This document shows positions 1-10,517 of a stretch of DNA of 10,517 bases, piece after piece (positions within the stretch are counted from its first letter, which is position 1; each line of letters begins with the position of its first letter). The notes under the pieces are model-generated. The model ran no database searches. It was not told where the DNA came from and worked only from the letters and a program-made list of their open reading frames with translations. The stretch lies in IMG/VR virus record IMGVR_UViG_2585427755_000006; one strand, given 5' to 3'. A program made the position numbers and the translations under genes. The stretch comes from a virus. Its lineage: Duplodnaviria; Heunggongvirae; Uroviricota; Caudoviricetes.

Positions 1-91
1 TAGACTGGCCCCCTGAATCTCCAGACAACCAATATCACTTAAATAAGTGATAGTCTTAATACTAGTTTTTAGACTAGTCATTGGAGAGCAG

Positions 92-457
92 ATGATTGAT
101 GTCTTAGGACCGGAGAAACGCAGACGGCGTACTACACAGGAAAAGATCGCTATTGTTCAGCAGAGTTTTGAACCGGGAATGACGGTCTCCCTTGTTGCCC
201 GGCAACACGGTGTGGCAGCCAGCCAGTTATTTCTCTGGCGCAAGCAATACCAGGAGGGAAGTCTTACTGCTGTGGCCGCAGGAGAGCAGGTCGTTCCTGC
301 CTCTGAACTTGCTGCTGCCATGAAGCAGATTAAAGAACTCCAGCGCCTGCTCGGCAAAAAAACGATGGAAAATGAACTCCTTAAAGAAGCCGTTGAATAC
401 GGGCGTGCAAAAAAGTGGATAGCGCACGCGCCCTTATTGCCCGGGGATGGGGAGTAA
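92..457 (+). CDS. insC: IS2 transposase OrfA (InsC), 121 aa, HTH DNA-binding
   Basis: ATG at 92 after GGAGAG RBS. Translation [40 protein letters not shown]... matches recalled InsC. The track ORF from 47 is an upstream GTG extension. Confidence 0.9.
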
Positions 458-1320
458 GCTTAGTCAGCCGTTGTCTCCGGGTGTCGCGTGCGCAGTTGCA
501 CGTAATTCTCAGACGAACCGATGACTGGAAAGATGGTCGCCGCAGCCGTCACTCAGATGATACGGATGTGCTTCTCCGTATACACCATGTTATCGGAGAG
601 CTGCCCACGTATGGTTATCGTCGGGTATGGGCGCTGCTTCGCAGACAGGCCGAACTTGATGGTATGCCTGCGATCAATGCCAAACGTGTTTACCGGATCA
701 TGCGCCAGAATGCGCTGTTGCTTGAGCGAAAAACCGCTGTACCGCCATCGAAACGGGCACATACTGGCAAAGTGGCCGTGAAAGAAAGCAATCAACGATG
801 GTGCTCTGACGGGTTCGAGTTCCGCTGTGATAACGGAGAAAAACTGCGAGTCACGTTCGCGCTGGACTGCTGTGACCGTGAGGCACTGCACTGGGCAGTC
901 ACTACGGGCGGCTTCGACAGTGAAACAGTACAGGACGTAATGCTGGGAGCGGTGGAACGCCGCTTCGGCAACGAGCTTCCGGCGTCTCCAGTAGAGTGGC
1001 TGACGGATAATGGTTCATGCTACCGGGCTAATGAAACACGGCAGTTTGCCCGGATGTTGGGGCTTGAACCGAAGAACACGGCGGTGCGGAGTCCGGAGAG
1101 TAACGGCATAGCAGAGAGCTTCGTGAAAACGATAAAGCGTGACTACATCAGTATCATGCCTAAACCAGACGGGTTAACGGCAGCAAAGAACCTTGCAGAG
1201 GCGTTCGAGCATTATAACGAATGGCATCCGCATAGTGCACTGGGTTATCGCTCGCCACGGGAATATCTGCGGCAGCAGGCCAGTAATGGGTTAAGTGATA
1301 ACAGGTGTCTGGAAATATAG
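415..1320 (+). CDS. insD: IS2 transposase OrfB (InsD), 301 aa, DDE catalytic domain; expressed as InsCD fusion by -1 frameshift
   Basis: Translation [23 protein letters not shown]...NRCLEI matches recalled InsD. Overlaps insC in the -1 frame with slippery CAAAAAAG at 408-415. Confidence 0.9.
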
Positions 1321-1658
1321 GGGCAAATCCACATCCCTTCAATTATACCCTCAGCCTTCTGTAACCTTTTCCCGATATAACCATCAGAGCAGCAATGCTT
1401 ACCTGCCAGTGACATGAATGTCATACCGACTACATAATAATCTACTAATAAATCGTGCAAATCGCTGTTGTTCTTTTTCAGACGGGCCATGCACCCGCAA
1501 ATGATCATCGCGTCATCGTCACAACATTGCGGGCGAGATTTTACTTTTGAAGGAATTAATCCCTTAAAACCGGCGGCAATGGACGACCAGGTCACATCTT
1601 CATGATTATTAGCCGCCCACGCTCCCCAACGCTCAAGAACCATCTGAATATCACGCAT
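1245..1658 (-). pseudogene. quuD: Q-family antiterminator quuD, C-terminally truncated by IS2; first 109 codons intact (1332-1658) then 28 IS2-derived codons to stop at 1245
   Basis: ATG at 1656-1658 with GGAG RBS. Translation [26 protein letters not shown]...KAEGIIEGM matches recalled K-12 QuuD to residue 109. The next codon TGG is the first base of the IS2 right end (1331). The track's MWSKL start is an in-frame TTG and was rejected. Confidence 0.7.
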
Positions 1659-1743
1659 CAACTTACTCCACAAAAATCAGACCAGAACGCCAATTACAAG
1701 CAAAAATCAATAAAACAGTATTAGTTGATTGTTATCTCTGACT

Positions 1744-1884
1744 TCATACTCCTGCTCCTGTCAGGGTTTTGGCGTAATTCCTCAGTATTCGGTAATCGGT
1801 CAAAACAGAACTGGGGAAACGATATAAGCGCAGGCGCATCCAGCGGTGGCGAAGAAGTTCTGCCATATTAAACTCAAACATCAT
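1744..1884 (-). CDS. ylcG: Small DLP12-type protein YlcG (46 aa)
   Basis: Hand translation [49 protein letters not shown] overlaps the rusA stop (ATGA). Below the track's length cutoff. Confidence 0.55.
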
Positions 1885-2243
1885 TCATTCCCCATTTCGG
1901 TGATGGTCAGTTCCAGCCTCCCACCTTTGGTAACAGGCATCTTCACAACGCGGTAATCAACGACCTGAGCATCATCCAGCCAGAAACCTGCTTTAGTGAG
2001 TGCGTCAAAAGCGGCTTTTTGCAGATTATCCAGGTCACGGCGACGGCGATCCGGCATGTGGCACTCAATGCGGATTTTCACAGGCATAGCCAGGCCGATA
2101 TCCAGCATTGCGTTTTTAATGATTCGGGCGACGTTATCGCGGTATGCCTGCCCCTCTGCGCTGACGTGCGTGCGCCCGCGATTATGGCGGTAATAGCGAT
2201 TATTGCTCGGAGGCCAGGGTAATGTGATGCTGTAGGTATTCAC
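1881..2243 (-). CDS. rusA: Holliday junction resolvase RusA (120 aa)
   Basis: Translation [41 protein letters not shown]... matches recalled RusA. GTG start overlaps ybcO stop (GTGA). Confidence 0.9.
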
Positions 2244-2530
2244 GCCTTAATAACCCCCTCTTTCAGCCAGATAACCTGTGTTCTCGCCATACCTTCCAGC
2301 GCGCATTCTTTTGCATACTCAGCATCGACAAAATGTGTGCGGCGGTCGATTTCGTCGTGACAGGCAGAACATGCGATGGTGGCAATCAGGTCTGGCGGTT
2401 TGATACCGGTACCGCACAATCCAGCCAGCCGGATATGTGCCAGTACAGACGTTTCAGAATTGCCATTACATACGCCAGGGATTCTTACCTGGCATTCCCG
2501 ACCACGCGCTGCTTTTCTCAAATCAGCCAT
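2240..2530 (-). CDS. ybcO: YbcO, DUF1364 phage protein (96 aa)
   Basis: Translation [38 protein letters not shown]...; ATG at 2528-2530 lies inside the ninE 3' end. The track ORF is extended upstream to 2569. Confidence 0.8.
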
Positions 2531-2693
2531 GATTCCTCCTTGCTGCCAGTCGCAACCATTTTTTATCAACCAGGCTGGCGGTATATCCGAGCAGAGTTGG
2601 TATTTCGGATGGCTTCAGCTCAGGTTTACGCTTACGACGATTTGGTACTTTGTAGATGTGTCCGTTCATGACACGAATAAGCGGTGTAGCCAT
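2523..2693 (-). CDS. ninE: NinE (56 aa)
   Basis: Hand translation [59 protein letters not shown] overlaps ybcN stop (TAATG). Below the track cutoff. Confidence 0.75.
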   Translation of the reverse strand: MATPLIRVMNGHIYKVPNRRKRKPELKPSEIPTLLGYTASLVDKKWLRLAARRNHG

Positions 2694-3148
2694 TACGCCT
2701 CCTGCTTGTCGCGCAGCAGCTGGAACTCGCAGCTCTGCGGAATAGTCAGGTGGCAGCCAATATTCATCGCCCAGGCTTCAACCTTACACAGGAAGACATA
2801 CATCTCTCCGGTATCGAGATCGGAGGTATGACGTAATGACTGAATGGTGGTGATTTCACCGGTTACGACATCAACCAGTTCTTTGGTTTCATAACCGAGA
2901 TAAGTGTGTTTGAGAGCATCTTTTACCCAAGCTGGAGTGGCGAACGTTTTACCCCTGCTGATGAGGTATTCACTGATTTCGCTGTACCACATGTGGCTGA
3001 GTGCATTCTGGGAAAGACTGCGTCTCTCGCGCCATGGTTTAAGCACCATGCGAAAGCATTTGCCGTCCTCCAGATAAGGCTGGATCTGCCGACCGATAGA
3101 GGTGAAGTTACCGCGATGCAGTTTGATGCCATCTTGTGGGAAGTTCAC
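2693..3148 (-). CDS. ybcN: YbcN (151 aa), lambdoid nin-region protein
   Basis: Translation [35 protein letters not shown]... matches recalled YbcN. GTG start at 3146-3148 behind a GGAGGTGA Shine-Dalgarno. Confidence 0.85.
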
Positions 3149-3246
3149 GCTTCACCTCCGCAGAGATCAAACGCTGGATGCAAGATATCGCAGGTGCATT
3201 TCTGCATCTGTGAAGGGAGAAGATAGTTTGGATTGTATGTGCGCAT
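3145..3246 (-). CDS. ylcH: Small protein YlcH-like (33 aa)
   Basis: Hand translation [33 protein letters not shown]. Stop overlaps ybcN GTG (GTGA). GGGGA RBS 5 nt upstream of ATG at 3244-3246. Matches the 33-aa ylcH slot upstream of ybcN in K-12. Confidence 0.5.
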
Positions 3247-3342
3247 AAACGTCCCCGTTTAGCGCAGAAGTCACCGGAGTTGTTCAAGCTCCAATGGCAT
3301 GATTATGGCTGGTTGATTATGGGAAATCAAATGTGCTGAAAA

Positions 3343-3849
3343 TTAGTCTGCCAAGTCTTCCTCAGTCACAACTGGGTAATTCCAAATATCAAAAAAAGCT
3401 ATAGCCTCCTGCCATTTGTTCCATAAATTATCAAGTACTTGTGTAGGTTCCGTACTTTTAAAAACAGAATCAGCCGCATCACCGTTATGAACTTCCTCGT
3501 ACAGTTCCATTATTAGCAGATTAACAAAGTACTGTTTCAACATTAATGCCTGATTACCTTCTTTCTGCTGGCTATCCTGCTTGATGATCTCCATCGCCCG
3601 TACCAGGCACCTGATGATATCCGCTGCATCATTAACGCTCCATTCAGATCCGCGCTTATCTGTAGCTGATGTATTGGCTCTCTCAGCGCAAGCCTTTAAA
3701 GACTCATAAAGGTAAACTCTATTTTGTAGCTGCAGCGCTTTTTTTGACGTGTACCAACTTGCAAGCGCCGACCCCGCTGCGGCTAATGTGCCAAACGCAG
3801 AAATGCCTGCTGCTATTGCACTTAAGTCGGCACTGTCAAAGTTCCACAT
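3343..3849 (-). CDS. Hypothetical 168-aa protein with a single predicted N-terminal transmembrane helix (AIAAGISAFGTLAAAGSALASWY) and an acidic C-terminal domain; no recognised family
   Basis: Clean ORF with ATG at 3847-3849 and AAGGTG RBS. Looks lower in GC than the flanking nin genes (by eye). Sits where K-12 DLP12 has ybcL/ybcM. Confidence 0.7.
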   Translation of the reverse strand: MWNFDSADLSAIAAGISAFGTLAAAGSALASWYTSKKALQLQNRVYLYESLKACAERANTSATDKRGSEWSVNDAADIIRCLVRAMEIIKQDSQQKEGNQALMLKQYFVNLLIMELYEEVHNGDAADSVFKSTEPTQVLDNLWNKWQEAIAFFDIWNYPVVTEEDLAD

Positions 3850-3881
3850 TATCGTTACACCTTATATAAATACCCCTCAGT

Positions 3882-3910
3882 AATATCCAATAAGGTATGT
3901 GAACAATCAA
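3882..3910 (-). promoter_or_regulatory. Candidate sigma70 promoter for the 168-aa gene (-35 TTGATT, 17-bp spacer, -10 GATATT)
   Basis: Minus-strand TTGATTGTTCACATACCTTATTGGATATT about 35 bp upstream of the ATG, directly downstream of the terminator at 4026-4068. Confidence 0.3.
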
Positions 3911-4025
3911 TATAATTTTATCCGTATCGGCACATAGCGATTTGAATGCTACTGGTAATGGTGTCTTTTAGATTATTTCGTCCAGTTTACAGCACCCGTA
4001 TTTTATGAAATGGACTCGCACATTA

Positions 4026-4068
4026 CCCCAAAAAATGCCAGCACTTCCGTCATCGTAGAATGCTGGCA
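4026..4068 (-). terminator. Rho-independent terminator after the 107-aa gene
   Basis: Inverted repeat TGCCAGCA (4036-4043) / TGCTGGCA (4061-4068) followed on the minus strand by TTTTTT (plus-strand A-run 4030-4035), about 20 bp past the stop at 4088. Confidence 0.5.
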
Positions 4069-4087
4069 GTATTTCTAACTAGTGACT

Positions 4088-4411
4088 TTATTGCAACAGA
4101 TTCTGACGGAAATATGGTAACACTCGACTCCACTTATCATCCAGCCACGGCTGGAATTTTACATGTGCCGTTTCTCTGGCGAGGATTGCTCGCGCTCTGG
4201 TGAGTATCTGGGGATATTCTTGCTCGATGGAAGTGAAGCGACCAGCTTCACGATGCTCCGCAACCTGAAGAAGGGGAGTAACGTTCTGGCAGGCGGTTAA
4301 CATCGCATCCCCTGCTCGCCATAACCAGGCGAGTGTGCAAAGTTCGTTATCAGTGAATTGTTTTGTGATTGGGAATTGTTGAACTGCTAGAACGAGAACG
4401 CCAGCATCCAT
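4088..4411 (-). CDS. Hypothetical 107-aa soluble protein; no recognised family
   Basis: ORF MDAGVLVLAVQQFPITKQFTDNELCTLAWLWRAGD... with ATG at 4409-4411 and GGGA RBS. Flanked by its own candidate extended -10 promoter and its own terminator. Confidence 0.65.
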   Translation of the reverse strand: MDAGVLVLAVQQFPITKQFTDNELCTLAWLWRAGDAMLTACQNVTPLLQVAEHREAGRFTSIEQEYPQILTRARAILARETAHVKFQPWLDDKWSRVLPYFRQNLLQ

Positions 4412-4488
4412 TGGCAGTCCCTATAGTAAAACCATAGCTCAGGACGCTTCGTTCAGGATAGATAATTTTATTGTACTTACCTAACTTT

Positions 4489-4500
4489 CTTACTATAGCA
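4489..4500 (-). promoter_or_regulatory. Candidate extended -10 promoter (TGcTATAGT) for the 107-aa gene
   Basis: Minus-strand TGCTATAGT (plus 4492-4500) about 80 bp upstream of the ATG. The -35 is weak, as is common for extended -10 promoters. Confidence 0.3.
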
Positions 4501-4522
4501 CGGTTGAAAAAGTGATTATTAC

Positions 4523-6049
4523 TCAAAAATAAACCTCACCATCAACCATATATTTGAGAGTACTTATCGCCTGCTGGGCGGATATTGTTTTCATTAAAGG
4601 ATAGTGTTTAAAAACAATGCCATTCATAAAATAGATATCACAGGTTTTATTATCTGTATTGATTATGATTTTTTCGAATGTTTTATAGGCAAGTGTACGA
4701 CATAGCTCTCGCCCATTTTTACTGGTTAAGTCAATAGCATGAAAATCACCAAGTGAACTCACCGCTTTACTCTTCAAAGTTTTTAATGATACCGAAGCCC
4801 TTCGTAATTCCTTATCTAATACTCTGATTTTTTCTGCTATAGCGGTAACTTCAGGCGCAACAGATAATGCAGCAATTAAATTATTAATTTTCATCTGGAG
4901 CTCAATAATTTTCAACTCTAAAGTTTCATTAGCATCTTTCTTGTTTTCAACTGGTTGGATTTTGCTACAATTAAAAAGCAACTCATTAATGATATTATAA
5001 TCAACCAAATCTCTCTTTATTGATGGCCTGTCACATCGATGCAGTCTTCTCATCGGACAAACATAATAGCCATGCAAACTTCCAGATACCGCATGAATAA
5101 TCATGGTATTACCACAAGCCTCGCACTTCATAACTGTTCGAAGTAGATTTATCAACATAGGATTTTTGCTACTATTGCTAATACCAAAAGGTGCCAACCG
5201 AATTTCCTGCACAGCGTAAAACAAATCATCTGATATGACTCTGGGATAATAGCCAGCGATTTCACTTATTCCTTTACCTCTTGCACGATATGAAGGTACG
5301 CATATACCTATCAGAGCTTTATTCGCTAATAATTTTTCAATTACAGAAGGCCCCCATGCACTTTCTTTTCCTGAGAAATTTTTTACAGCATGATCATTTA
5401 AATACTTGGCTATTGCATTCAATGAGCGCCTTTCCATCCTGAGTTTAAAAATTAGCTCAATAGTTTTCACCCTGTCGGGGTCTGGAACAAAAGCCGTTCT
5501 TTTGTCATCTAAGGATAGCCATCTAGGACAAGACGCCGTCATAATCGTACCTGATTCCAGTGCATCCTGCCGTTTTTTCTTCCATGATAATTTAACCCGA
5601 CTTGACTTTATCTCGCTTTCTTCATTTGCCCTTTGTGCTATAAGTATGGCTTTTATTAATGAATATGGCTCATTCAAAGAGTCAATATTATAGACTGTAT
5701 TGTCGCAAAGAGTTATAACATCAATACCGTGATTCAAAATCAATTTCAGACGTTCAATCGCTTCACCGACTTTTTCTCTTGAAAGCCTGTCCAGACTTTC
5801 AACTAACAATGTAGTTCCTGGCAATATATAACCATGCTCTATAGCATCTAAAAATTCCGAAAAAGCTCCTGATTGTGCATGCTTTCCTTTGAATGCACTT
5901 AATCCTAAATCTTCATATGTTATGGTATCAAGATAATAATCACTATTTACCTTTAACCATTCAGCAATAAGTCTTCTCTGTCGGTTTAATGAGTCGCCAG
6001 ACATCTGACCTGGTGATGAAAATCGCATATATGCTATGGCTTTTTTCAT
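4523..6049 (-). CDS. ybcK: Large serine recombinase YbcK (508 aa)
   Basis: N-terminal resolvase-type catalytic motif AYMRFSSPGQ, C-terminal cysteine cluster CEACGNTMIIH...YYVCPMRRLHRCD, and a match to recalled K-12 YbcK. AGGTG RBS. AT-rich. Confidence 0.9.
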   Translation of the reverse strand: MKKAIAYMRFSSPGQMSGDSLNRQRRLIAEWLKVNSDYYLDTITYEDLGLSAFKGKHAQSGAFSEFLDAIEHGYILPGTTLLVESLDRLSREKVGEAIERLKLILNHGIDVITLCDNTVYNIDSLNEPYSLIKAILIAQRANEESEIKSSRVKLSWKKKRQDALESGTIMTASCPRWLSLDDKRTAFVPDPDRVKTIELIFKLRMERRSLNAIAKYLNDHAVKNFSGKESAWGPSVIEKLLANKALIGICVPSYRARGKGISEIAGYYPRVISDDLFYAVQEIRLAPFGISNSSKNPMLINLLRTVMKCEACGNTMIIHAVSGSLHGYYVCPMRRLHRCDRPSIKRDLVDYNIINELLFNCSKIQPVENKKDANETLELKIIELQMKINNLIAALSVAPEVTAIAEKIRVLDKELRRASVSLKTLKSKAVSSLGDFHAIDLTSKNGRELCRTLAYKTFEKIIINTDNKTCDIYFMNGIVFKHYPLMKTISAQQAISTLKYMVDGEVYF

Positions 6050-6230
6050 GGTGACACCTGCTAACGTATGTTTTTATAAACCTTAGTGGTGAGATATAAT
6101 TTTTGTTTAATTTTTATTTAAAAAGACAATTAAGGTCACATTATCTTGAATATACAACAATAATCGTATTGCAATTTTCTTACACCATAATCTTGAAAGC
6201 ACAAAAGAATACATAAAAAAAATAAAGACA

Positions 6231-6276
6231 TTAACAAAAAGCATAAAACGAGGCTCATATAAATATAAGAGCCTCC
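6231..6276 (-). terminator. Rho-independent terminator downstream of emrE
   Basis: GAGGCTC (6250-6256) / GAGCCTC (6269-6275) stem with a 12-nt AU loop, followed on the minus strand by GTTTTATGCTTTTTGTT. Confidence 0.4.
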
Positions 6277-6306
6277 ATATTTTAGTCGTTTAGAAACAAA
6301 TTATTT

Positions 6307-6639
6307 TTAATGTGGTGTGCTTCGTGACAATAAATTAATAACCAACACTCCGGCACAAATCAACATCATGCCTATAATGGCTGGCATGTCCAGCCGTTGG
6401 CCGAAAAATCCCCATGACAGTAAGCTAATCAGGACAATACCGACTCCTGACCAGATAGCATAAGCAATCCCTGTAGGAATATAAGCCAGCGTCTGCGCTA
6501 ATAACCAGAATGATGCACAATAACAAATAATTGTACCAACAGATGGCCATAACCGTGTAAAACCTTCTGAAAACTTCATTAAGGTTGTACCAATGACCTC
6601 TGCAAGTATTGCACCACCAAGATAAATATAAGGGTTCAT
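6307..6639 (-). CDS. emrE: SMR-family multidrug efflux transporter EmrE (110 aa, 4 TM helices)
   Basis: Translation MNPYIYLGGAILAEVIGTTLMKFSEGFTRLWPSVG... matches recalled EmrE. The track ORF carries an 18-codon upstream extension. Confidence 0.9.
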   Translation of the reverse strand: MNPYIYLGGAILAEVIGTTLMKFSEGFTRLWPSVGTIICYCASFWLLAQTLAYIPTGIAYAIWSGVGIVLISLLSWGFFGQRLDMPAIIGMMLICAGVLVINLLSRSTPH

Positions 6640-6654
6640 AGCATATTCTTTCCT

Positions 6655-6689
6655 GTTCAAACTGGAGAGAATTGTACTACAGTTTGAAC
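6655..6689. repeat. Perfect 10-bp inverted repeat GTTCAAACTG/CAGTTTGAAC with a 15-nt spacer, between the ren stop and emrE start
   Basis: Read directly from the sequence at 6655-6664 and 6680-6689. Ends about 16 nt before the emrE ATG. No T-tract, so not a terminator. Confidence 0.5.
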
Positions 6690-6706
6690 TCAACTCACCT
6701 GTTTCA

Positions 6707-7009
6707 TCATTGTGTACCCATTGATGTTCTTTTATATACCCTCAATACCCGTTTCATCGCGGCACTCTGGCGACACTCCTTAAAAATCAGATTCGTGCTC
6801 ACCTTTCCTTCCCGTTCTTCTCTGGTAGCGAACCGGTAATACACCGTTCGCCAGACCTTACCATCAACGACCAGGATTCCTGCCCGCGCCATTTTAGCCG
6901 CAGCCTGATTTATGCTGGTTACGGTTGCGCCTGTTACCGCGGCAACGTCCTGTGCACAGAAGCTCTTATGCGTCCCCAGGTAATGAATAATTGCCTCTTT
7001 GCCCGTCAT
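6707..7009 (-). CDS. renD: Lambda Ren-like protein (100 aa)
   Basis: Translation MTGKEAIIHYLGTHKSFCAQDVAAVTGATVTSINQAAAKMARAG... matches recalled lambda Ren. ATG overlaps an upstream in-frame stop (ATGA), as at the lambda P/ren junction. Confidence 0.8.
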   Translation of the reverse strand: MTGKEAIIHYLGTHKSFCAQDVAAVTGATVTSINQAAAKMARAGILVVDGKVWRTVYYRFATREEREGKVSTNLIFKECRQSAAMKRVLRVYKRTSMGTQ

Positions 7010-7104
7010 ACACTTGCTCCTTTCAGTCCGAACTTAGCTTTAATTTCTGCGATCTTCGCCAGAGCCTGTGCACGATTTAGAGGTTTAGGCGCAATCACTT
7101 TCGT
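7006..7104 (-). pseudogene. Probable 3' remnant of replication gene P (last ~32 codons)
   Basis: Minus-strand frame open from 7104 to the stop at 7006-7008, translating ...TKVIAPKPLNRAQALAKIAEIKAKFGLKGASV*. No start codon; an in-frame TAG sits at 7105-7107. Assignment to P is from the lambda P-ren gene order and coupling, not from a verified match. Confidence 0.4.
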
Positions 7105-7213
7105 CTACTCCGTTACAAAGCGAGGCTGGGTATTTCCCGGCCTTTCTGTAATCCGAAATCCCCTGAAAGCACAGCGGCTGGCTGAGGAGATAAATAATAA
7201 ATGGGGGGGCTGT

Positions 7214-7405
7214 ATGCACAAAGCATCTACCGTTAAGTTAAGAACGAGTATCGAGATGGCACATAGCCTCGCTCAAATTGGAGTCAGGTTTGTGCCAATA
7301 CCAGTAGAAACAGACGAAGAATTTCACACGTTAGCCGCATCCCTTTCACAAAAGCTGGAAATGATGGTGGCGAAAGCAGAAGCAGATGAGAGAGACCAGG
7401 TATGA
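7214..7405 (+). CDS. Small 63-aa protein, lambda exo-xis orf63-like by position and size
   Basis: ATG at 7214 behind a GGGGGGG Shine-Dalgarno. Translation MHKASTVKLRTSIEMAHSLAQIGVRFVPIPVETDEEFHTLAASLSQKLEMMVAKAEADERDQV. First in a coupled chain of small genes. Confidence 0.6.
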   Translation: MHKASTVKLRTSIEMAHSLAQIGVRFVPIPVETDEEFHTLAASLSQKLEMMVAKAEADERDQV

Positions 7406-7485
7406 CAACCACTGAATGCATTTTTCTGGCAGCGGGCTTCATATTCTGTGTGCTTATGCTTGCCGACATGGGACTTGTTCAATGA
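7402..7485 (+). CDS. Possible 27-aa hydrophobic micro-protein (MTTTECIFLAAGFIFCVLMLADMGLVQ)
   Basis: ATG overlaps the stop of the upstream gene (ATGA) and its own stop overlaps the next ATG (ATGA). One predicted TM helix. No independent support. Confidence 0.3.
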   Translation: MTTTECIFLAAGFIFCVLMLADMGLVQ

Positions 7486-7697
7486 CACCTCAGCAGGAAA
7501 ACGCCCTTCGCAGCATTGCCCGTCAGGCTAATTCTGAAATCAAAAAAGCCAGACAGCAGTTTCCGGATAAAAACGTCGATGACATTTGCCGTAGCGTACT
7601 GAAGAAGCACCGCGAAACGGTAACGCTGATGGGATTCACACCGACTCATTTAAGCCTGGCAATCGGCATGTTAAACGGCGTCTTTAAGGAACGATGA
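7482..7697 (+). CDS. Small 71-aa protein, lambda exo-xis orf61-like by position
   Basis: Translation MTPQQENALRSIARQANSEIKKARQQFPDKNVDDICRSVLKKHRETVTLMGFTPTHLSLAIGMLNGVFKER. The track ORF is extended upstream to 7416. Confidence 0.55.
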   Translation: MTPQQENALRSIARQANSEIKKARQQFPDKNVDDICRSVLKKHRETVTLMGFTPTHLSLAIGMLNGVFKER

Positions 7698-7789
7698 ACA
7701 TGAAAAGCAAAATCATCAGGGAGCTACAGGCTCCTTTTTTATTATTCGCATTCACCCTCAAGCGTATTAACCAACAATTCAGGGATTAA
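7694..7789 (+). CDS. Possible 31-aa micro-ORF (MNMKSKIIRELQAPFLLFAFTLKRINQQFRD)
   Basis: ATG overlaps the upstream stop (ATGA). Fills the gap before the TraR-like gene. Could be chance. Confidence 0.2.
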   Translation: MNMKSKIIRELQAPFLLFAFTLKRINQQFRD

Positions 7790-7795
7790 TGGAAG

Positions 7796-8017
7796 ATGGC
7801 AGACATCATTGATTCAGCATCAGAAATTGAAGAATTACAGCGCAACACAGCAATAAAAATGCGCCGCCTGAACCACCAGGCTATATCTGCCACTCATTGT
7901 TGTGAGTGTGGCGATCCGATAGATGAACGAAGACGCCTGGTCGTTCAGGGTTGTCGGACTTGTGCAAGTTGCCAGGAAGATCTGGAGCTTATCAGTAAAC
8001 AGAGAGGTTCGAAGTGA
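7796..8017 (+). CDS. TraR/DksA-family C4 zinc-finger protein (73 aa), lambda orf73-like
   Basis: CCECGDPIDERRRLVVQGCRTCASCQ gives a C-x2-C...C-x2-C zinc finger after an acidic N-terminal helix, typical of TraR-like RNA polymerase secondary-channel binders. Size and position match lambda orf73. Confidence 0.75.
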   Translation: MADIIDSASEIEELQRNTAIKMRRLNHQAISATHCCECGDPIDERRRLVVQGCRTCASCQEDLELISKQRGSK

Positions 8018-8316
8018 GCGAAATTAACTCTCAGGCACTGCGTGAAGCGGCAGAGCAGGCAATGCATGACGACTGGGGATTTGACGCAGACCTTTTCCAT
8101 GAATTGGTAACACCATCGATTGTGCTGGAACTGCTGGATGAGCGGGAAAGAAACCAGCAATACATCAAACGCCGCGACCAGGAGAACGAGGAAATTGCGC
8201 TAACGGTAGGAAAGCTGCGCGTTGAGCTGGAAGCAGCAAAATCAAAACTCAACGAGCAGCGTGAATATTACGAAGGTGTTATCTCGGATGGAAGTAAGCG
8301 TATTGCTGAACTGTAG
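8014..8316 (+). CDS. Ead/Ea22-like protein (100 aa, coiled-coil C-terminus)
   Basis: GTG start overlapping the upstream stop (GTGA). Translation MSEINSQALREAAEQAMHDDWGFDADLFHELVTPSIVLELLDERERNQQYIKRRDQENEE... matches a recalled Ea22-like family. Confidence 0.55.
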   Translation: MSEINSQALREAAEQAMHDDWGFDADLFHELVTPSIVLELLDERERNQQYIKRRDQENEEIALTVGKLRVELEAAKSKLNEQREYYEGVISDGSKRIAEL

Positions 8317-8566
8317 GCCTAGGTTGAATGTACAAGATTTGCATACGTAAGAGCAAAAGACAAGGGAGAATTGATCAGAGTTATTACCTGCCAACCAACG
8401 GGATATTACGCTTACGTACCATGTAACTAGGAATCCTTGAAGTGGCAGCCTAACTGTGGATACACTGAAATGGCGATTTGGTAACATGTTTCGCACAAGG
8501 CTGTTACTACGCTTAGAGATAATCAGTCATGATTAAATGCTTTGTAAAAAGTAAAAGGAAATTACA

Positions 8567-9181
8567 ATGAAAAAATCAACACTAATTTTAGGGCTTACGT
8601 TAATTGTCTCATCTCAAATACCATCGGCAATGGCAAAAAATGAATCAAAACTTTGGGTTGTTGTTGATCGAACGGAAAGACATACCTGCCCTTCAAGTAA
8701 ATGTGGAGTGGCTGGGAAACTATTTTTCAGGGAAGGCGTAGATTTTCTAGAAAAAAAAGGTGAATGGGTTCGTATAACTGAGCCATATTCAGCCTCATGT
8801 GTGGGAGGGGAAAGCGAATATATTAAAGAAGGTAATAAATCCTGCACAAGAAAAAACGGAATCGTTAATGGCAAGTTTTCAGAATGGGTTAAACTTAGTG
8901 ATCTTAGCAGTGAAAGGCCATCAGATCCTGCTGAAAATGCGAGCAGAAATGATACCTTAATCAAAGGATCTGATGACTACCGTATATACAAAAAAGAGTT
9001 TTCTTCGGCAGCTAGGAAGTTAATAAGTGAAGGTGTCTGCACGGAGAGCGATTTTAAGGAAGTTGGAGGGTGGATGGCATCAAGCAATAAGGGTGAAAAC
9101 ATCTATTTCACATATTGCGGAGGAATGACGTTGTCGAACAGAATATATCTAGACGTTAAAAGTGGAAAGACTTTTAGATAA
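8567..9181 (+). CDS. Secreted/periplasmic hypothetical protein (204 aa) with cleavable signal peptide and an SH3b-like N-terminal region
   Basis: Signal peptide MKKSTLILGLTLIVSSQIPSAMA with AxA cleavage motif. The stretch LWVVVDRTERHTCPSSKCGVAGKLFFREGVDFLEKKGEWVRI resembles a bacterial SH3 fold. Six cysteines. AAGGAAA RBS. Lies in the AT-rich island. Confidence 0.7.
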   Translation: MKKSTLILGLTLIVSSQIPSAMAKNESKLWVVVDRTERHTCPSSKCGVAGKLFFREGVDFLEKKGEWVRITEPYSASCVGGESEYIKEGNKSCTRKNGIVNGKFSEWVKLSDLSSERPSDPAENASRNDTLIKGSDDYRIYKKEFSSAARKLISEGVCTESDFKEVGGWMASSNKGENIYFTYCGGMTLSNRIYLDVKSGKTFR

Positions 9182-9252
9182 TATGATATTACCAATGACA
9201 GCATTAATTTAATGCCTCCATAGAATTATCTCTAGGAAGTAAGTATAAGAAA

Positions 9253-9289
9253 AGTCCGCACAATGAGCTGCTGCGGGCTTTGTGTTATT
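9253..9289 (+). terminator. Candidate rho-independent terminator after the secreted-protein gene
   Basis: AGTCCGCA (9253-9260) / TGCGGGCT (9272-9279) stem with one G-U pair and an 11-nt loop, followed by TTGTGTTATT. Confidence 0.4.
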
Positions 9290-9474
9290 CGCCATATTTT
9301 ATGAAGCAAATACGACACTATAGATAATTAAGCGTTACTGGTTGTCGATTCCTCACTCATTCCTGCTGATGGCTGTCTTCTTGTATGTGTCATTGAAGGG
9401 TAATATCGCGTAAAAAGATACCGGAAGTATCCGCGCCGCTATGATTGTCTTTCTCCTGATGCAGGAAAAGCAGA

Positions 9475-9813
9475 ATGACTAAATCAGCAGCAGAGCGCAA
9501 AGCCGATCAGAGAGCCAAGCAAGCATCATCCGGTATGCGTAAGCTGGAGCTTGTACTTGATGCTCAGGAAATTGAAATGCTGGAGCGTAACTGAGCCACG
9601 CGCCGCTTCAGGCGTGCGCCTTACGAGTTTGGTGAGTACATAGCGTTACTGAGCCGCCAGGATGATGCACGTGTGCGCTGGCGTATAAAATCGATTAGCA
9701 GAAAACGTTGCCGTAAGTGCGGCGAGAGAGTTCCTGTTAATTCATGCCCGTGTAATGGTGACTCACAATACTGGGTGACCAAAGGCTGGCACGAAACAAA
9801 ATTAATGATATAA
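9475..9813 (+). pseudogene. 112-codon reading frame interrupted by one in-frame TGA (9592-9594): 39-aa N-terminal part plus 72-aa C-terminal part with a zinc-ribbon motif
   Basis: ATG at 9475 gives MTKSAAERKADQRAKQASSGMRKLELVLDAQEIEMLERN, then TGA, then the same frame continues ATRRFRRAPYEFGEYIALLSRQDDARVRWRIKSISRKRCRKCGERVPVNSCPCNGDSQYWVTKGWHETKLMI*. No ATG in the second part; an internal GTG at 9673 is the only alternative start. Confidence 0.45.
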
Positions 9814-9841
9814 ATCTCTGTGACATGTCACGGAGGCGGCA

Positions 9842-10270
9842 ATGAAATTAGACCAGCAATATCTAAAAGATCTACTTATCGCATTCGAAAAAACTTATGG
9901 CCCTGACACGATGCTTAGTGAACTAGAGGATAATGGCTTTAATAGATATGACCAAAATTTTATTTTCCATATGCGATTATTATGTGACTACGAATTAATA
10001 GTTAGGGTTGATGGAAAACCTGGGTTCGGTCATATAATGTCCAACGAGTTAGGGGAAGGTGTTGAATATAGTTGGCTCGAAGTACCACTGAGGTTGACAG
10101 CAAGAGGGCATGATTTTATTGCTGACTTACGTCAAAAGGAGGTCTGGCAAGCTATAAAAACAAACTTTAAGGATGAGGGAATTGGTACTCTTATGAGTGT
10201 TTCAAAATCACTAGCAAAAGGCTTTGCAAGAAAAAAAATAAAAGATATTACAGGAATAGATATTGAATAA
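9842..10270 (+). CDS. Hypothetical 142-aa protein, prophage cargo, no confirmed family
   Basis: ATG at 9842 with GGAGG RBS (cacGGAGGcggcaATG). Clean AT-rich ORF ending 36 bp before the IS911-like terminus. Confidence 0.7.
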   Translation: MKLDQQYLKDLLIAFEKTYGPDTMLSELEDNGFNRYDQNFIFHMRLLCDYELIVRVDGKPGFGHIMSNELGEGVEYSWLEVPLRLTARGHDFIADLRQKEVWQAIKTNFKDEGIGTLMSVSKSLAKGFARKKIKDITGIDIE

Positions 10271-10306
10271 TTCTTAGCATAAAGCAACTACTGCCTTTGG
10301 TGAAAA

Positions 10307-10517
10307 TGAAGTGGTTTACTGAATTTGGCCACCTGAACAGAGGTGATATGCTCACCTCAGAACAACACAGGTGCCATAATGAAAAAAAGAAATTTCAGCG
10401 CAGAGTTTAAACGCGAATCCGCTCAACTGGTCGTTGACCAGAATTACACCGTGGCAGATGCAGCCAGCGCTATGGATGTCGGCCTTTCCACAATGACGCG
10501 ATGGGTGAAACAATTAC
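10307..10517 (+). mobile_element. Left end of an IS3-family insertion sequence closely related to IS911 (partial, runs off the window)
   Basis: Terminus TGAAGTGGTTTACTGAATTTGGCCACC resembles the IS911 left inverted repeat TGAAGTGGTCAACAAAAACTGGCCACC, followed by an IS911-type orfA. Confidence 0.8.
10379..10517 (+). CDS. IS3-family transposase OrfA (IS911 InsN-like), N-terminal 46 codons only
   Basis: Translation [46 protein letters not shown] matches recalled IS911 OrfA apart from a few substitutions. AGGTG RBS. Confidence 0.85.

Follow-up and report, generated by a model that had tools for sequence, protein, structure and literature searches.

We report that a variable interval in a lambdoid prophage, positions 3247-4522 of a 10,517-nucleotide stretch of tailed-phage DNA (IMG/VR record IMGVR_UViG_2585427755_000006; the whole stretch is referred to here as the window), is very probably a composite produced by ordinary lambdoid mosaic recombination, in which the truncated 3' end of an antirepressor gene (ant) adjoins one separate cargo gene and no two-gene system is present. 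The interval lies between the large serine recombinase gene ybcK and the conserved genes ylcH and ybcN, where the DLP12 prophage of Escherichia coli K-12 carries ybcL and ybcM, and it contains two open reading frames (ORFs) of 107 and 168 residues, the latter designated orf168. An earlier note on this DNA had proposed that the two ORFs form a single cassette, swapped in beside the recombinase and possibly encoding an undescribed anti-phage or superinfection-exclusion system. The pair does resemble a defense cassette next to a recombinase, and is in fact a decayed antirepressor with an independent neighbor. The confidence expressed here pertains to the structural and evolutionary account; the function of orf168 is graded separately below.

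Lambdoid mosaicism, truncated antirepressors and cargo slots are already known kinds of phenomena, and the findings so far will not surprise phage geneticists; they leave one modest candidate gene, orf168. They also provide a landmark that can be reused when lambdoid prophages are mined: ant has a variable slot on either side, the distal one ending at a conserved promoter-like element, TTGATT-17-CATAAT, about 85 bp upstream of ylcH/ninB, and these slots hold a validated defense gene (PD-lambda-1/SNIPE) and a HEPN module. The orf168 family, a compact orphan of 34 representative clusters with a clear topology, offers an inexpensive single-gene candidate for screens of exclusion, defense or counter-defense.

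The 107-residue ORF as an antirepressor remnant

Neither ORF could be placed in any family when the sequence was first read. For the 107-residue ORF (4088-4411, minus strand) that assessment does not stand: Pfam identifies a P22_AR_C domain (PF10548) at residues 15-85, with an E-value of 3.1e-16 and 59.6 bits against a cut-off of 22.4, and the product also matches anti-repressor families in PHROG, with PHROG 7640 being its own. In BLASTP it shares 86% identity with residues 147-249 of a 249-residue protein of phage PhiR5_1. Full-length relatives in PhiR5_1 and PhiR26_1, of 249 or 202 residues, combine Bro-N (PF02498, residues ~15-147) with P22_AR_C, and in PhiR5_1 a divergent Arc-like gene lies upstream of ant. 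In the 107-residue ORF, Pfam finds no N-terminal domain; the Bro-N half is missing, as is the full length of about 200-300 residues. Homology to ant covers 4088-4398 and stops at 4398, and the ATG with the first four codons consists of junction DNA. This junction, an 85-bp segment at 4399-4483 defined by BLAST breakpoints, is confined to the arrangement in which ybcK meets the ant stub, and is absent from K-12 DLP12 and from phages with intact ant.

Directly past the ant stop codon is a hairpin resembling an intrinsic terminator (GCCAGCA...TGCTGGC followed by a U6 tract; 4030-4068, minus strand), with a folding energy (dG) of -17.8 kcal/mol and a z-score of -4.35, matched by one of 200 shuffled sequences. 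The terminator noted earlier between the two ORFs is thus present, and alignment shows it to be common to phages with intact ant. As judged from these alignments, the 107-residue ORF is the last 103 codons of a 249-residue Bro-N/P22AR_C antirepressor gene together with the ant terminator. It resembles the P22-type Ant/BRO-family antirepressors in its P22_AR_C domain, its identity to the C-terminal 103 residues and its retained terminator, but differs from them in having neither the Bro-N half nor an upstream Arc-like regulator, and in drawing its start codon from junction DNA; it is a fragment and not a functional member of that family.

We regard the stub as most likely a non-functional remnant. 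Several observations weigh against this reading and make residual function conceivable: the 107-residue frame is intact in most genomes, its exact sequence is found on 383 contigs, the junction that supplies its start is widespread (516 genomes, see below), and the ratio of non-synonymous to synonymous substitution rates (dN/dS) against other alleles is about 0.2-0.3. A weak AGGGA precedes the ATG by 6 nt, and no terminator separates the stub from ybcK. On these grounds the stub might function on its own as a P22AR_C-domain protein, for instance by modulating the interaction between antirepressor and repressor or by acting as a decoy in it. We consider this unlikely, since the Bro-N domain is missing and the frame has been shortened further, to 66 residues, or broken by stop codons beside the cargo of UMB200201_11 and CUVET20-PYO1. 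The divergence of the stub may also be older than the truncation, or have been acquired from intact ant genes through recombination, and because the immunity region has been lost from the prophage, the stub would have no obvious target here.

Separability of the two ORFs

RefSeq annotates both ORFs as coding sequences in a strain that shares 100% DNA identity with the window over 3149-4522, and part of that span is matched in about 2,900 of the 5,426 complete E. coli genomes. Of the 5,426, 516 have the junction of ybcK with the ant stub (at least 80% coverage) and 181 have orf168; the two are therefore separable. In MS14385 the stub is followed by an unknown 118-residue protein, in UMB200201_11 by two small unknowns and in CUVET20-PYO1 by an alpha/beta hydrolase gene on the reverse strand. 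Conversely, the loci of PhiR5_1, PhiR26_1 and strain B1.H1.18 lack ybcK, and in them orf168 follows a full-length ant.

A scan of IMG/VR yielded 52 orf168 loci, which were sorted with a tblastn panel. Fourteen have the arrangement of the window (ybcK, stub, orf168, ybcN), and 26 have an intact ant and no ybcK, 12 of them with PD-lambda-1 upstream; one locus contains a 5'-truncated orf168. The remaining 11 hold divergent homologues (43-77% identity) accompanied by neither ant nor ybcK, and the next gene in nine of these is of the NinB, YbcN or DUF1367 type. Among the E. coli-type loci, ant or its stub precedes orf168 at a fixed distance of ~240 nt in 40 of 41. More distant homologues, found in loci from Logan, ENA, Enterobacter cloacae and Phytobacter, follow replication genes (lambda P-type or DnaB-type) on the same strand; the homologue is followed by NinB in two of the loci, by DUF1367 in one and, in Phytobacter, by an unassigned ORF, with Q downstream where this was scanned. 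A profile scan of species-representative genomes with a narrower alignment recovered a homologue in two genomes only.

The proposal that the 107- and 168-residue products constitute an undescribed two-gene anti-phage or superinfection-exclusion system delivered beside ybcK draws on the variable position of the interval, on the validated defense gene found close by in related phages and on the constant spacing of ant or its stub before orf168. We hold it to be very improbable nonetheless. The first ORF is a truncated ant; the stub also accompanies other cargos and is found in three times the number of genomes that have orf168; it is full-length ant that pairs with orf168 in intact phages, and the divergent homologues lack ant altogether. 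Moreover, most orf168 loci lack ybcK, the two ORFs have a terminator between them, and neither of them matches a PADLOC model. The notion of one cassette consequently gives way to that of a stub belonging to the phage backbone, where it persists beside other cargos and decays in some lineages, and of a cargo gene in its own right.

A cargo slot with a fixed right boundary

Comparison with K-12 confirmed the initial observation that the flanks follow the DLP12 order and that two ORFs stand in place of ybcL and ybcM. Homology to K-12 DLP12 is 94-97% over 1331-3331 and 4484-6920 (BLAST), and is interrupted at 3331/3332 and 4483/4484. The exchanged segment is thus 3332-4483, or 1,152 bp, in place of a 1,813-bp K-12 segment containing ybcL and ybcM. 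Mapping of the boundaries, which had been suggested as a check, was extended to other alleles: every one loses homology to the window on the right at 3331-3334 (BLAST, four alleles), with ragged breakpoints on the left at 4106, 4192, 4240 and 4484. Breakpoints on the left side lie within the 3' end of ant; on the right, an alignment of seven loci shows conservation to start exactly at TTTGATT. We designate the variable interval between the ant terminator and this boundary slot B, and the interval from ren to ant slot A.

The seven loci contain six different contents in slot B: orf168; ybcL-ybcM; the 118-residue unknown; the two small unknowns; the alpha/beta hydrolase; and a HEPN protein with a partner. 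Many unrelated contents thus occur at one fixed position between conserved genes, as expected of a hotspot. The HEPN module, from the O157:H7 G5295 prophage (slot B, 4692-5488 in that locus), comprises a 138-residue HEPN protein (Pfam 3e-6, with a weak match to the PADLOC candidate PDC-M28A at 1.8e-7) overlapping a 133-residue unknown, and the two likely represent a toxin-antitoxin or defense pair. In the same prophage the ren-side slot (2684-3031) carries an integron-cassette protein of the VCH_CASS14 family, and a tRNA cluster lies downstream of Q. PADLOC found no match among the slot B products YbcL, YbcM, the hydrolase and the small ORFs. In slot A, PD-lambda-1 (PADLOC 1.9e-198) occupies PhiR26_1, strain B1.H1.18 and the 12 ant-intact IMG/VR loci mentioned above. 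This system, first identified in an earlier study (Vassallo 2022, PMC9519451), was later characterized as SNIPE, a nuclease bound to the membrane that cuts phage DNA as it is being injected (PMC13190303). The idea of a cargo-swapping position with defense content nearby was accordingly sound, given six contents, a shared right boundary and SNIPE one slot away.

The conserved right flank (3247-3331, minus strand), delimited by promoter scan, BLAST boundaries and the seven-locus alignment, contains the promoter-like element at 3330-3302, the one such site that the scan detected here, whose -35-like hexamer coincides with the TTTGATT at which conservation starts, and a TTGATT/AATCAA inverted repeat over the -35 region. 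A CCGGAG-N9-CTCCGG hairpin before ylcH is conserved in six of the seven loci; O157 differs at two loop positions with the stem maintained. The folding energy of this flank is no better than that of shuffled sequences. The element may be a candidate promoter, operator or terminator-like element for ylcH-ninB.

The slot corresponds to the lambdoid nin-region position (the 'ninA position', from ren or the replication genes to ninB) and recalls the morons of Hendrix in that unrelated cargo alternates at a bounded, fixed site. P22 has only the tiny ninA ORF and a terminator at this position. Like a Hendrix-type moron, orf168 has a G+C content below that of the backbone and a terminator upstream; such a moron, however, carries its own promoter and a downstream terminator, features that our scans did not find for orf168, as detailed below.

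Proposed origin of the composite

Homologous recombination between conserved flanks is a known route of module exchange in lambdoid phages and defective prophages. The combination of a fixed right edge with ragged left breaks fits this route, and not site-specific recombination. In the account we favor, the backbone is the one seen in the inducible phages PhiR5_1 and PhiR26_1: ren, slot A, ant, terminator, slot B, the promoter-like flank, ylcH and ninB/ybcN. The window is co-linear with both phages from the nin genes to 4398, and again in ren. The intervening emrE-ylcJ-ybcK block (4399-6733) has a G+C content of 0.28-0.39, versus ~0.50 in the phage backbone, and comparison of the sequences indicates that it replaced slot A along with the 5' 146 codons of ant. 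This replacement left a 103-codon ant stub, with the ant terminator, that gained an ATG and so became the 107-residue ORF. Slot B contains one real gene, orf168, which in intact phages of several enterobacterial genera is the last before the ninB-type gene on the strand of the early-right operon. The difference from K-12 probably arose by homologous recombination between sequence at the 3' end of ant or downstream of ybcK and the TTGATT...CATAAT element.

Terminal direct or inverted repeats of the emrE-ybcK block were sought at 4399 and 6733, and none were found. PhiR26_1 carries a second copy of the ylcH start at 5650-5747, 89% identical to window positions 3169-3266, between PD-lambda-1 and ant; in that phage, direct ylcH-like repeats therefore lie on both sides of the ant-orf168 block and could serve as linkers for recombination in module exchange.

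The swaps had been linked to the neighboring recombinase, and we considered YbcK (4523-6049, minus strand; Pfam Resolvase, Recombinase and Zn_ribbon_recom) as a mobilizer of the cassette. It was rejected in that capacity, having been detected in only 14 of the 52 IMG/VR loci and in none of the 26 ant-intact or 11 divergent ones. Phages devoid of ybcK have this slot with its boundary unchanged, and orf168 as well, so the recombinase gene is incidental to the swaps; it is context only, and no part of a system with the two ORFs. In K-12, a genomic SELEX study lists H-NS-marked promoter sites for ybcK and ybcLM (PMC3946193).

The orf168 family and its predicted topology

The product of orf168 (3343-3849, minus strand) aligns over its full length with PHROG 1779 (E-value 1.3e-100; residues 1-168 on profile positions 2-169 of 169). 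No function is assigned to that family, and belonging to it therefore gives no clue to mechanism. All database names for it are 'hypothetical protein', and a literature search found no paper on either the 107- or the 168-residue protein. A word-indexed search returned 14 clusters of orf168 proteins, and an exhaustive profile search of 1.84 billion representatives returned 34 at 50% identity, nearly all of 153-182 residues. The family alignment displays conserved columns, and orf168 is a real gene. Estimates of dN/dS were uninformative, with too few differences among close alleles (two synonymous and six non-synonymous) and saturated dS against distant homologues. Its G+C content is 0.39-0.46, versus ~0.50 in the flanks.

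A single N-terminal transmembrane helix had been predicted from the first reading of the sequence, and the family bears this out. The hydrophobic segment (about residues 9-31) is uncharged and rich in Ala, Gly and Ser; its maximum Kyte-Doolittle value over 19 residues reaches 1.6 or more in 28 of 32 members, with a median of 1.84. Across the family the net charge is negative before the segment and positive after it. By the positive-inside rule, and because the positively charged n-region of a signal peptide is lacking, the segment is expected to be a single-pass anchor with the N-terminus out and the C-terminus in. The remainder is acidic, with a pI of 4.5, and AF2 models it as an all-helical bundle with a mean pLDDT of 79.8. 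Most members end in a conserved C-terminal tail of the form [TS]-[DE]-x-D-L-x-D, which lies outside the bundle in the AF2 model; for orf168 the motif reads T-[DE]-E-D-L-A-D. Sequence and model together predict an inner-membrane protein that crosses the membrane once, exposing a very short N-terminus to the periplasm and placing in the cytoplasm a helical bundle of ~135 residues and a conserved, probably flexible, acidic tail.

The sensitive profile and fold searches that had been recommended for both proteins placed the 107-residue ORF among the antirepressors; for neither protein did a family, fold or motif point to defense. No fold match was obtained for orf168, which also has no Pfam or NCBIfam match, and Pfam applied to all 32 family members produced only scattered single-member noise; a sequence profile run against PDB gave nothing below E=3, and no nuclease or other catalytic signature was found in orf168. 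Comparison of orf168, the stub and YbcK with PADLOC-DB 2.0 returned nothing at E<=1, with PD-lambda-1 as positive control (1.9e-198). A HEPN identity was considered and rejected: Foldseek similarities to HepT toxins were non-significant (E 0.45-2.9, TM <=0.33), no Pfam HEPN match was obtained, and the family alignment holds no conserved R-x(4-6)-H. Homology to SieA of P22 was likewise rejected, with hhalign of the 32-sequence profile returning a probability of 0.1% and an E-value of 0.55.

SieA, a 164-residue inner-membrane protein of superinfection exclusion, is comparable in size, in membrane location and in its place beside the arc-ant genes (mnt-arc-ant), an analogy of position and kind; by eye it has several hydrophobic segments where orf168 has a single N-terminal one, and orf168 is no member of its family. 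PD-lambda-1/SNIPE (DUF4041 and T5orf172) is, like orf168, a membrane-anchored, single-gene prophage cargo and sits one slot upstream of it, but shares no sequence, domain or fold similarity with it.

Expression signals and possible role of orf168

An AT-rich leader (3850-4029, minus strand), recognized by sequence and co-linearity, separates the terminator from orf168 and travels with the gene in phage and prophage loci; it contains a Shine-Dalgarno-like AAGGTG 9 nt before the ATG. Each of the two ORFs had been credited with its own candidate promoter. This was not borne out: a consensus scan detected nothing at threshold upstream of either, and the region contained two sites versus 4.1 in shuffled sequence. 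By eye, a weak sigma-70-like match at 8 of 12 positions (TTGATT-17-GATATT, about 3909-3881) is discernible upstream of orf168. Folding revealed no terminator downstream of the gene, and an Rfam scan of the whole window no RNA family.

Context and topology allow a tentative prediction that orf168 functions in exclusion or defense. Its G+C content is below that of the backbone, it occupies a cargo slot in some loci and is missing from it in others, where the slot may accept HEPN-type modules, and in E. coli-type loci it is preceded by a strong terminator and the 180-nt AT-rich leader. Defective prophages from which the immunity region, O and most of P have disappeared still carry it intact, and a validated membrane-bound defense gene resides one slot away. 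The conserved acidic tail on a membrane-tethered bundle would suggest docking of a partner. The protein might accordingly be an accessory factor, tethered to the membrane, whose task is to block a superinfecting phage or interfere with it at the inner membrane, with a partner docked via the tail, a role we put forward as a possibility. Somewhat more tentative is a specific version in which orf168 would be a new single-protein, N-out/C-in exclusion or anti-phage factor of the inner membrane, its acidic tail capturing a host or phage component at genome entry, and a companion cargo to PD-lambda-1/SNIPE in a hotspot made up of two slots, one on each side of ant.

Some observations run counter to a role in exclusion or defense. 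Slot cargo is heterogeneous and includes genes not associated with defense, namely ybcL/ybcM and a hydrolase; the promoter scan upstream of orf168 was negative; and the short upstream gap in distant homologues (35-110 nt) favors co-transcription with early lytic genes over a moron expressed in the lysogen. The last two points, together with an invariable location on the strand of the early-right operon between the replication genes and ninB, and with retention of the gene in inducible phages, speak for a delayed-early lytic gene that serves the phage: through membrane-tethered host takeover, through counter-defense against a membrane-associated host system, or through support of replication or recombination at the membrane. 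We assign such a lytic role about the same tentative standing as exclusion or defense; the low G+C content, the terminator and leader, the presence or absence at the slot and the survival in defective prophages, all listed above, are arguments against it. What probability remains belongs to roles of orf168 outside both groups.

Surrounding genes and other features of the window

The window is oriented antisense to the DLP12 gene order, so that the conserved genes lie on its minus strand. On the ybcK side are emrE (within 6307-6693) and ren (6707-7009). Past the slot, the first conserved gene is ylcH (3145-3246; 33 residues), assigned from RefSeq annotation of the identical locus and from that of K-12; it overlaps the start of ybcN, a NinB-family gene (2693-3148), beyond which the order is ninE, ybcO, rusA, ylcG and quuD.

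The last of these, quuD (region 1245-1673), is broken at ~1330 by an IS3-family element at the left end of the window (1-1330), which comprises an HTH_Tnp_1 ORF (47-457) and an rve ORF (415-1320) and whose closest RefSeq annotations read 'IS3-like element IS2 family'. This insertion into quuD has no single-piece aligned match in any complete E. coli genome. In strain 1409 (NZ_CP063369.1) quuD is intact, and the DNA is otherwise 99.97% identical over 1331-10307. Examined over window positions 6734-10307 and positions 1-25374 of the strain 1409 locus, the prophage of that strain occupies the lambda attB region, between bioA-ybhB and ybhC, and K-12 DLP12 is at argU. It is defective, with no repressor, cro, cII or O annotated and only a fragment of replication gene P adjoining ren; its nin-region genes are therefore without an upstream pR promoter.

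On the ead/Ea22 side, the plus strand contains an ORF of 204 residues (8567-9181) with no Pfam match and an N-terminus that by eye resembles a signal peptide, and near it a 142-residue DUF2513 protein (9842-10270). Both constitute further, uncharacterized cargo of this prophage.

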